Virus record (IMG/VR): IMGVR_UViG_3300027985_000432
Direction: 5' to 3' (one strand)
Length of the DNA stretch: 14,661 nucleotides
Source: a virus
Shown here: in pieces, positions 1,927-2,806 of the stretch
Numbering within the stretch: the stretch's first letter is position 1
Layout of the letters: the number at the start of each line of letters is the position of its first letter
Notes under the pieces: model-generated
Seen by the model: only the letters and a program-made list of their open reading frames with translations
What the model was told of the DNA's origin: nothing
Databases searched by the model: none
Position numbers and translations under genes: made by a program

Positions 1927-2806
1927 AGTCCGCCAGATTTAGAATATAAACTGCTTCAGCAATATCTTTTGGCAAACTTAGAAGCCAACGCTTATAATGT
2001 TCTGGCATCAGTCCATATCTCCTCATATGAAGAGAGATAACATATGACCTTTTGAGAGCAGTATCATTATCTATTCCCTGTTCAGGAAACAATGCCCAAT
2101 ACGCACTAGGACTCTCATGACCATAGAAGTGTCCAACACCCTTTTCATCAATCGTCTTAGTATAATACTTTCCGATATCGTGTAGGCGCCCAAGCTTCGA
2201 ATATACAGGTGATTCTAGTTTTCGAGCATCAATTCTCTCTTGAACCAACTCACAATGTTCTCCAACAGAAAACGAATGCCAAGGATTATCCTGCTTCAAA
2301 CTTCTATTCTTCACATCAATAAAGTCTCGCTCTACCAATGCAAGTTGAATCGTGTGAGTAAACACCAATTCAATCTCATCCCAACCCTCATCATAGTAGG
2401 GAGTTTGGAACTGATTCAACTGACGGAGAATAATTCTCTCTCCAACATGACGATCTCTTTCTTTGTCCCGATTTACACAAACTGAAACTGGGGCTAAGAT
2501 GATTCTACATTTCTTTGTGGCTTCAATTCCTTTTCGAGTTAGGTTCTGAAGAAAGTTCTTACGTCTTTTAGAATTGAGATTGGTTGCGTCATAAATTACG
2601 TTGCTTCCTGCTAACAAATCTTTTTCAACTCTCGAATGAAGCATACTAAAGATTAGATTATTATCTCCTTGAGTACCCGCATCACCATAGAGTTCTTTAC
2701 GAATGGAATCGGAGCTATGGACTATATATCCCTGCTTCTCGTATTCGCGCTAGACCGTAGATTTACCGCATCCAGATATTCCAACCAACATTATAAAATT
2801 ACACAT
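1910..2806 (-). pseudogene. pnk: polynucleotide 5'-OH kinase (P-loop, T4 Pnk-like N-domain) fused to a C-terminal HD-domain phosphoesterase, interrupted by an in-frame TAG at 2750-2752 (codon 19)
   Basis: Hand translation from ATG 2804-2806 (SD AAGGAG 6 nt upstream) gives MCNFIMLVGISGCGKSTV-TAG-REYEKQGYIVHSSDSIRKELYG...YDATNLNSKRRKNF. This aligns with T4 Pnk GCPGSGKSTWAREF...ISDTNLNPERR. The C-terminal half carries HD motifs (H..H, RLHDIGK, H...GHE). The ORF track only reports the portion after the TAG (1910..2644, starting MLHSRV). TAG is a normal stop elsewhere in the window. Confidence 0.6.

Follow-up and report, generated by a model that had tools for sequence, protein, structure and literature searches.

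RNA-repair genes of the window

The window, that is, the whole 14,661-nt stretch of viral DNA analysed here (IMG/VR record IMGVR_UViG_3300027985_000432), carries all of its genes on the minus strand, and the features on which the following sections depend are listed in Table 1. Judging from sequence, the Pnk-HD gene sits in a predicted phage RNA-repair island together with the genes of an ATP-dependent RNA ligase, the partner of an end-healing kinase, and of an RlaP-family nucleotidyltransferase, RlaP being an enzyme that extends damaged RNA 3' ends by one or two nucleotides (PMC12776372). The ligase, RlaP and Pnk-HD genes are adjacent in that order in loci L071 and L078-L080, for example, while other arrangements are found in further loci, and the make-up of the island agrees with the RNA-repair syntax that has been described in large phages (PMC7824862). 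Relatives of the RNA ligase at 62-67% identity are located on contigs of 135-175 kb from gut Clostridia and other gut MAGs, and the window probably comes from a large phage of gut Firmicutes.

The 803-aa protein with the Major Vault Protein shoulder domain is 68% identical in L064, a syntenic relative of the window, and is encoded near the ligase in six related loci at 44-68% identity. It may represent a scaffold component of the RNA-repair island; neither Rfam nor ARAGORN yielded a partner RNA for it, and no Rfam RNA family was found in the window.

The island further includes a protein with a cREC-type receiver domain (4022..4402, minus strand; the Pfam cREC_REC match was obtained on the Logan gene call in contig L108), which adjoins an HD_4 / phrog_990 phosphohydrolase (3427..4029, minus strand), the two together occupying 3427..4402; a link of cREC domains to RNA ligases and to NAD/ADP-ribose processing has been reported in jumbo phages (PMC7824862). 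An HNH endonuclease gene (13358..13888, minus strand) shares 16 nt with the start of the RlaP gene and may have entered the repair island as a homing endonuclease. A 214-aa ORF (11893..12537, minus strand), flanked by RlaP and by the small genes that precede the ligase, has a GTG start, a good ribosome-binding site and a lipoprotein-type signal peptide (LLFSGC), and appears to encode a phage lipoprotein. Finally, the ~350 nt at 5006..5358 hold only a 44-aa ORF amid tightly packed minus-strand genes and gave no Rfam or tRNA match; they could be a promoter/regulatory region or an uncharacterised small RNA.

Table 1. Genes, signals and independently assembled contigs, by position in the window
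Feature	Position	Strand	Remarks
Pnk-HD gene	1910..2806	minus	N-terminal P-loop polynucleotide kinase (AAA_33) and predicted C-terminal HD phosphoesterase; 298 codons, TAG at codon 19 in the window
Residual ORF from Met55, 244 aa	1910..2644	minus	Without P-loop and SSD..R motif, HD domain kept
Amber codon TAG (codon 19)	2750..2752	minus	Variant base 2751: coding-strand A in the window, C (TCG, Ser) in the independent assembly
Shine-Dalgarno sequence AGGAG	2813..2817	minus	6 nt upstream of ATG 2806..2804; same start used by the Logan caller
803-aa vault-like protein	6065..8476	minus	Major Vault Protein shoulder (E 1.2e-22) and Vault_3 repeat (E 5e-11)
TAG terminator of conserved 74-aa zinc-finger-like ORF	9627..9629	minus	TAA in the orthologue, then ribosome-binding site and MazG-like ATG
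ATP-dependent RNA ligase, 464 aa	9796..11190	minus	phrog_968, E 1.7e-57; 79% identical to the L064 orthologue
RlaP-family nucleotidyltransferase, split	12491..13373	minus	173-aa N-terminal ORF 12852..13373 and C-terminal frame 12491..12901
G5 run at the RlaP frameshift	12858..12862	minus	One G fewer restores the conserved motif KIEKWGYDGKQLHHIIRM
Logan contig L067	1..2808		2807/2808 identical, single mismatch at 2751
Logan contig L108	2782..5460		100% identical
Logan contig L066	5434..11905		100% identical
Logan contig L068	11883..14606		100% identical

Architecture and family of the Pnk-HD protein

The Pnk-HD frame reads from the ATG at 2806..2804 through MCNFIMLVGISGCGKSTV into the TAG at 2752..2750, continues as REYEKQGYIVHSSDSIRKELYGD... 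and closes at the TAA at 1912..1910, with 279 further codons after the TAG. This TAG, just 3' of the P-loop GISGCGKST, is the sole in-frame break of the 298-codon frame, which confirms on the minus strand the preliminary description of an in-frame amber at codon 19 of a pnk gene behind an ATG with a Shine-Dalgarno sequence. It had also been stated that the ORF listing contains only a fragment from an internal Met lacking the ATP-binding loop. Indeed, the only ORF that a standard caller returns on the amber allele is the 244-aa one from Met55, which contains neither the P-loop nor the invariant S31-S32-D33-R36. It is identical to the JGI gene call P0001, and this call shows the window to be a complete JGI metagenome contig of 14,661 bp. 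There is no in-frame ATG, GTG or TTG between the TAG and 2644, and Met55 has no AGGAG closer than ~20 nt upstream, a spacing too wide for a ribosome-binding site.

The conservation noted earlier across the TAG holds in three ways. With the stop masked, Pfam AAA_33, a P-loop kinase family to which polynucleotide kinases belong, spans residues 5-135 (E 4.9e-19; 69.5 bits, cut-off 27); tblastn with the protein of the closest relative gives a single unbroken alignment that runs from window 2797 to 1913 across the stop (51% identity, E 8e-93); and the window protein retains, on both sides of the TAG, 27 of the 27 invariant columns of a 30-sequence family alignment. Hence the match across the TAG is not due to chance. 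The invariant residues G9, G14 and K15 precede the stop, within a Walker A P-loop GxxxxGK[ST] formed by residues 9-17, and S31, S32, D33, R36, D73 and T75 follow it in the SSD..R and DATN motifs. In the C-terminal half, the Pfam HD match at residues 177-236 scores 21.0 bits, just below the cut-off of 22, and all the invariant columns are present (H177, H184, H209-D210, K213, H230, H260 and D293).

A search of 5.8 billion proteins gave 555 relatives, the best of which are ~280-340 aa long and share the same architecture. On this evidence the window gene is predicted to belong, as a new member, to an abundant and already known family in which an AAA_33 polynucleotide kinase is joined, over ~300 aa, to a C-terminal HD phosphoesterase. 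At the column of the amber codon, 29 aligned homologues carry Ala (24 sequences), Ser (4) or Ile (1), and in-frame stops are absent from the gene in all 65 homologue loci. Two homologues (P0017 and P0020) read VS at this column, exactly like the intact allele described below.

The family bears on the possibility that the native protein begins at Met55 and that the P-loop segment lies outside the gene, as the JGI call of the 244-aa ORF would have it. No homologue was found to start at a downstream Met: all of the 29 aligned sequences begin with the P-loop, and the AAA_33 match starts at residue 5. Together with the position of the Shine-Dalgarno sequence, which serves the ATG at 2806 and has no well-spaced counterpart before Met55, this makes such a start the least probable of the explanations considered, to the point of being negligible.

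Regarding the label pnk and the comparison with phage T4, the kinase half stands while the C-terminal half does not. T4 polynucleotide kinase (PseT) provides, by analogy, a P-loop kinase fold with a role in the repair of cleaved tRNA alongside an RNA ligase, and its segment KSTWAREF corresponds to KSTV*REY in the window protein. However, the T4 enzyme has a HAD (DxDxT) 3'-phosphatase whereas the window protein has an HD domain; an assignment as T4-type Pnk (kinase and HAD) was rejected given that no HAD (DxDxT) match was found and that the C-terminal half matches HD. The T4 pnk gene is dispensable on most hosts and its null alleles are viable, but the phage studied here is a metagenomic one of gut Firmicutes and not a laboratory mutant.

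For residues 3-134, the nearest match of known structure is the kinase domain of Clostridium thermocellum Pnkp (PDB 4gp7, 4jst and related; E 3e-10 for 4gp7), which shares with the window protein the P-loop (GSGKST in the Clostridium enzyme) and the SSD..R and DATN motifs and has an Ala at the amber column (GSGKSTFAKKHF). In CthPnkp the kinase is coupled to a calcineurin-type metallophosphoesterase and a ligase-like domain (PMC1920235), whereas here it is fused to an HD domain. A further likeness, by analogy, is with the HD-Pnk of Runella slithyformis, a bifunctional end-healing enzyme with HD 2',3'-phosphoesterase and 5'-OH polynucleotide kinase activities whose gene lies beside that of a ligase (Munir and Shuman 2017, via PMC6097658); its HD domain is N-terminal, while that of the window protein is C-terminal.

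Two observations concern the evolution of the gene elsewhere. Between the window (1910..2806) and L064 (6932-7867) Pnk-HD is only 51% identical, as against 79% for the RNA ligase and 68% for the vault-like protein, and relative to these genes it is either faster-evolving or exchanged. In L058 and L059 (~9908-10761; IMG/VR dataset 3300045988) the Pnk-HD homologues align as two overlapping pieces in different frames, which suggests a frameshift in these predicted genes as well.

The independent assembly and the use of TAG

The window was compared with a second, independent assembly, namely four Logan project contigs from SRA run SRR7216773 that had been found via exact matches of neighbouring proteins. 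Tiled over window 1..14606, they are identical at 14,605 of 14,606 bases, and the one mismatch, at 2751, is the middle base of the amber codon: GGTC TCG CGC in L067 and GGTC TAG CGC in the window. L067 hence encodes an intact 298-aa protein, GKSTVSREYEKQ, which reads ...GCGKSTVSREYEKQ... around codon 19, and one transversion, plus-strand G to T at 2751, turns TCG into TAG. A sense codon at 2750-2752 is the very outcome that the preliminary description had named as speaking against a designed stop, and finding it in an otherwise identical assembly supports two of the options raised there, namely an amber allele or pseudogene and a sequencing error. The ends of the window and of the Logan tiling nearly coincide (38 nt and 55 nt apart), which suggests that the JGI contig and the Logan contigs derive from the same read set. 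The Logan contigs overlap by 23-27 nt at their three breaks, suggesting thin coverage at these junctions. Megablast found no near-identical DNA among GenBank phages, and no sister contig with the exact pattern around the TAG was found in IMG/VR or among JGI metagenome contigs; the related loci in IMG/VR are relatives of at most 42% identity, which inform on the family and not on the allele.

The second lesion of the island behaves differently. The 173-aa RlaP ORF ends ...KIEKWGI* at the TGA at 12854..12852, and the next frame continues with GYDGKQLHHIIRM..., so that the break cuts the most conserved RlaP motif, HPYP..KIE.[FYW]GYD.KQLHH (here KIEKW|GYDGKQLHH). Removal of one G from the G5 run gives a 293-aa RlaP which aligns by tblastn in single pieces across the junction with Phass-1 (residues 6-259) and with 17 gut loci (37-55% identity). 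In 17 of 17 related loci RlaP is a single ORF with the motif intact. Unlike the amber codon, the frameshift recurs unchanged in the independent assembly (L068) and is thus present in the reads; the split is most simply a real frameshift mutation, and it may point to a module in decay. Programmed +1 slippage at GGG-ATA-TGA would be conceivable but finds support in no relative, and it was rejected.

We then considered whether TAG could be decoded in this phage, either by a phage or host amber suppressor tRNA (tRNA-Ser with a CUA anticodon, for instance) or by programmed read-through, so that a full-length kinase would be made. Such decoding would agree with the conservation that runs on across the TAG and with the Ser of the alternative allele, since Ser is an amino acid inserted by known amber suppressors; moreover, probably more than 100 kb of the genome lie outside the available DNA. 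Stop-codon-recoded phages (crAss-like, Lak; TAG as Gln) likewise have in-frame TAG inside conserved phage genes. In these phages, however, in-frame TAGs are numerous, TAG is avoided at gene ends and a suppressor tRNA is usually encoded, whereas the window has a single in-frame TAG, missing from the second assembly. The 30 minus-strand ORFs of the window end in TAA (21), TGA (5) or TAG (4), and the earlier observation that TAG closes other genes holds for the ends at 5359, 9627 and 12491, to which 75 can be added. Likewise, 3 of 13 genes of L064 end in TAG.

Only one other TAG, at 9629..9627, separates two ORFs of the same frame, the 74-aa zinc-finger-like one and a 98-aa MazG-like one. Here the Logan caller made one 164-aa gene across the TAG (window 9321..9851; L066 2091-2585), and together the shared frame and this call hinted at reassignment. 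But in L064 the orthologue of the 74-aa ORF, 81% identical, ends at this codon with TAA; a GGAG and the start codon (ATG) of the MazG-like gene come next, and the PHROG match to the MazG-like protein begins at the downstream Met. On these grounds the TAG at 9629 is a genuine terminator, and reassignment was rejected. The same Logan caller ends genes at TAG on L067 and L068, and its 164-aa read-through call is an artefact of choosing the genetic code per contig on a short contig.

Within ~4,700 codons, a single in-frame TAG thus interrupts a conserved gene, and it is TCG in the other assembly; no tRNA gene was found in the window, L064, L067 or L068. The earlier judgement that genome-wide stop reassignment is unlikely is borne out, TAG being a true terminator in the lineage. 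Regulated read-through or suppression, which had also been put forward, fared less well, and programmed read-through was rejected given that no relative shares the stop. As far as sequence can tell, both reassignment and programmed read-through appear unsupported, and we regard decoding of the TAG as very improbable. The same holds for its most specific form, a long shot in which the remainder of the genome would encode a tRNA-Ser(CUA), the codon-19 TAG and TCG would be effectively synonymous and the polymorphism would be tolerated while the suppressor is expressed.

Origin of the amber codon

Taken at the sequence level, the TAG is best described as a contig-specific one-base departure from a Ser codon, representing an allele or a consensus error and neither reassignment nor programmed read-through. 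The intact TCG allele is probably present in the same read data. We favour, with a probability of roughly 0.55, the reading that the TAG is a genuine null allele segregating in the phage population. One substitution suffices to produce it, from a Ser codon of which the amino acid is found in 4 of the 29 homologues. Given the near-coincident contig ends, which point to one read set, we infer that the assembler would pick TAG only with several TAG reads behind it.

On such an allele, translation from the ATG at 2806 would halt after 18 residues, and the next in-frame start would be Met55, which has no well-placed ribosome-binding site. A product from Met55 would be without the P-loop and the phosphoacceptor-binding Asp and Arg, and 5'-kinase activity would be lost, while the HD domain would be made at a low level at most. 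Since all 27 invariant family residues are retained, the lesion would be recent. The RlaP frameshift in both assemblies would fit relaxed selection on the RNA-repair module and its stepwise decay.

The main alternative is that the TAG arose in the JGI contig through faulty consensus building, base calling or read correction and that the phage DNA carries only TCG, the gene being intact and functional. This is a serious possibility, although one that we hold to be the less probable of the two. The independent assembly has TCG while being otherwise identical across 14,606 bases, and the Pnk-HD gene is otherwise free of signs of decay. If a k-mer of 31 is assumed for the Logan assembler, the overlaps at the three breaks are below k-1 = 30; they suggest low local coverage, which makes a consensus error conceivable. 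Furthermore, the plus-strand change of G to T is a common library artefact, typical of oxidative damage in Illumina libraries. Against an error, SNP bubbles resolve to the better-covered branch, and as TCG has reads behind the Logan contig the TAG would need recurrent support; in addition, the reproducible RlaP lesion shows that real gene-disrupting mutations occur in the island. Random substitutions in the Pnk-HD gene create a stop in 143 of 2682 cases (~5%), a proportion that tells against a random error. Because it is so low, a sole difference that happens to be nonsense is a priori unusual for a neutral SNP and for an error alike. The event is hence somewhat unusual under either ordinary reading, and it caught attention as a stop.

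As for the segregating null allele, a milder reading than that of a suppressor tRNA would be that the sequences capture a natural gut phage population in the course of losing its RNA-repair module stepwise, with the RlaP frameshift fixed and the pnk amber segregating.

The TAG feature itself is ordinary. Nevertheless, it carries a caution, given that a lone in-frame stop in a metagenomic contig can mimic recoding and that one gene caller read through another TAG here, while the independent assembly and the orthologue reveal an ordinary point difference and ordinary TAG termination. We advise against annotating the gene as a truncated 244-aa kinase; it is better entered as a Pnk-HD end-healing enzyme, with a remark that codon 19 differs (TCG or TAG) between the assemblies. 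Should the allele be genuine, it would provide a small example of the loss of an accessory anti-defence (tRNA repair) gene in natural phage populations.
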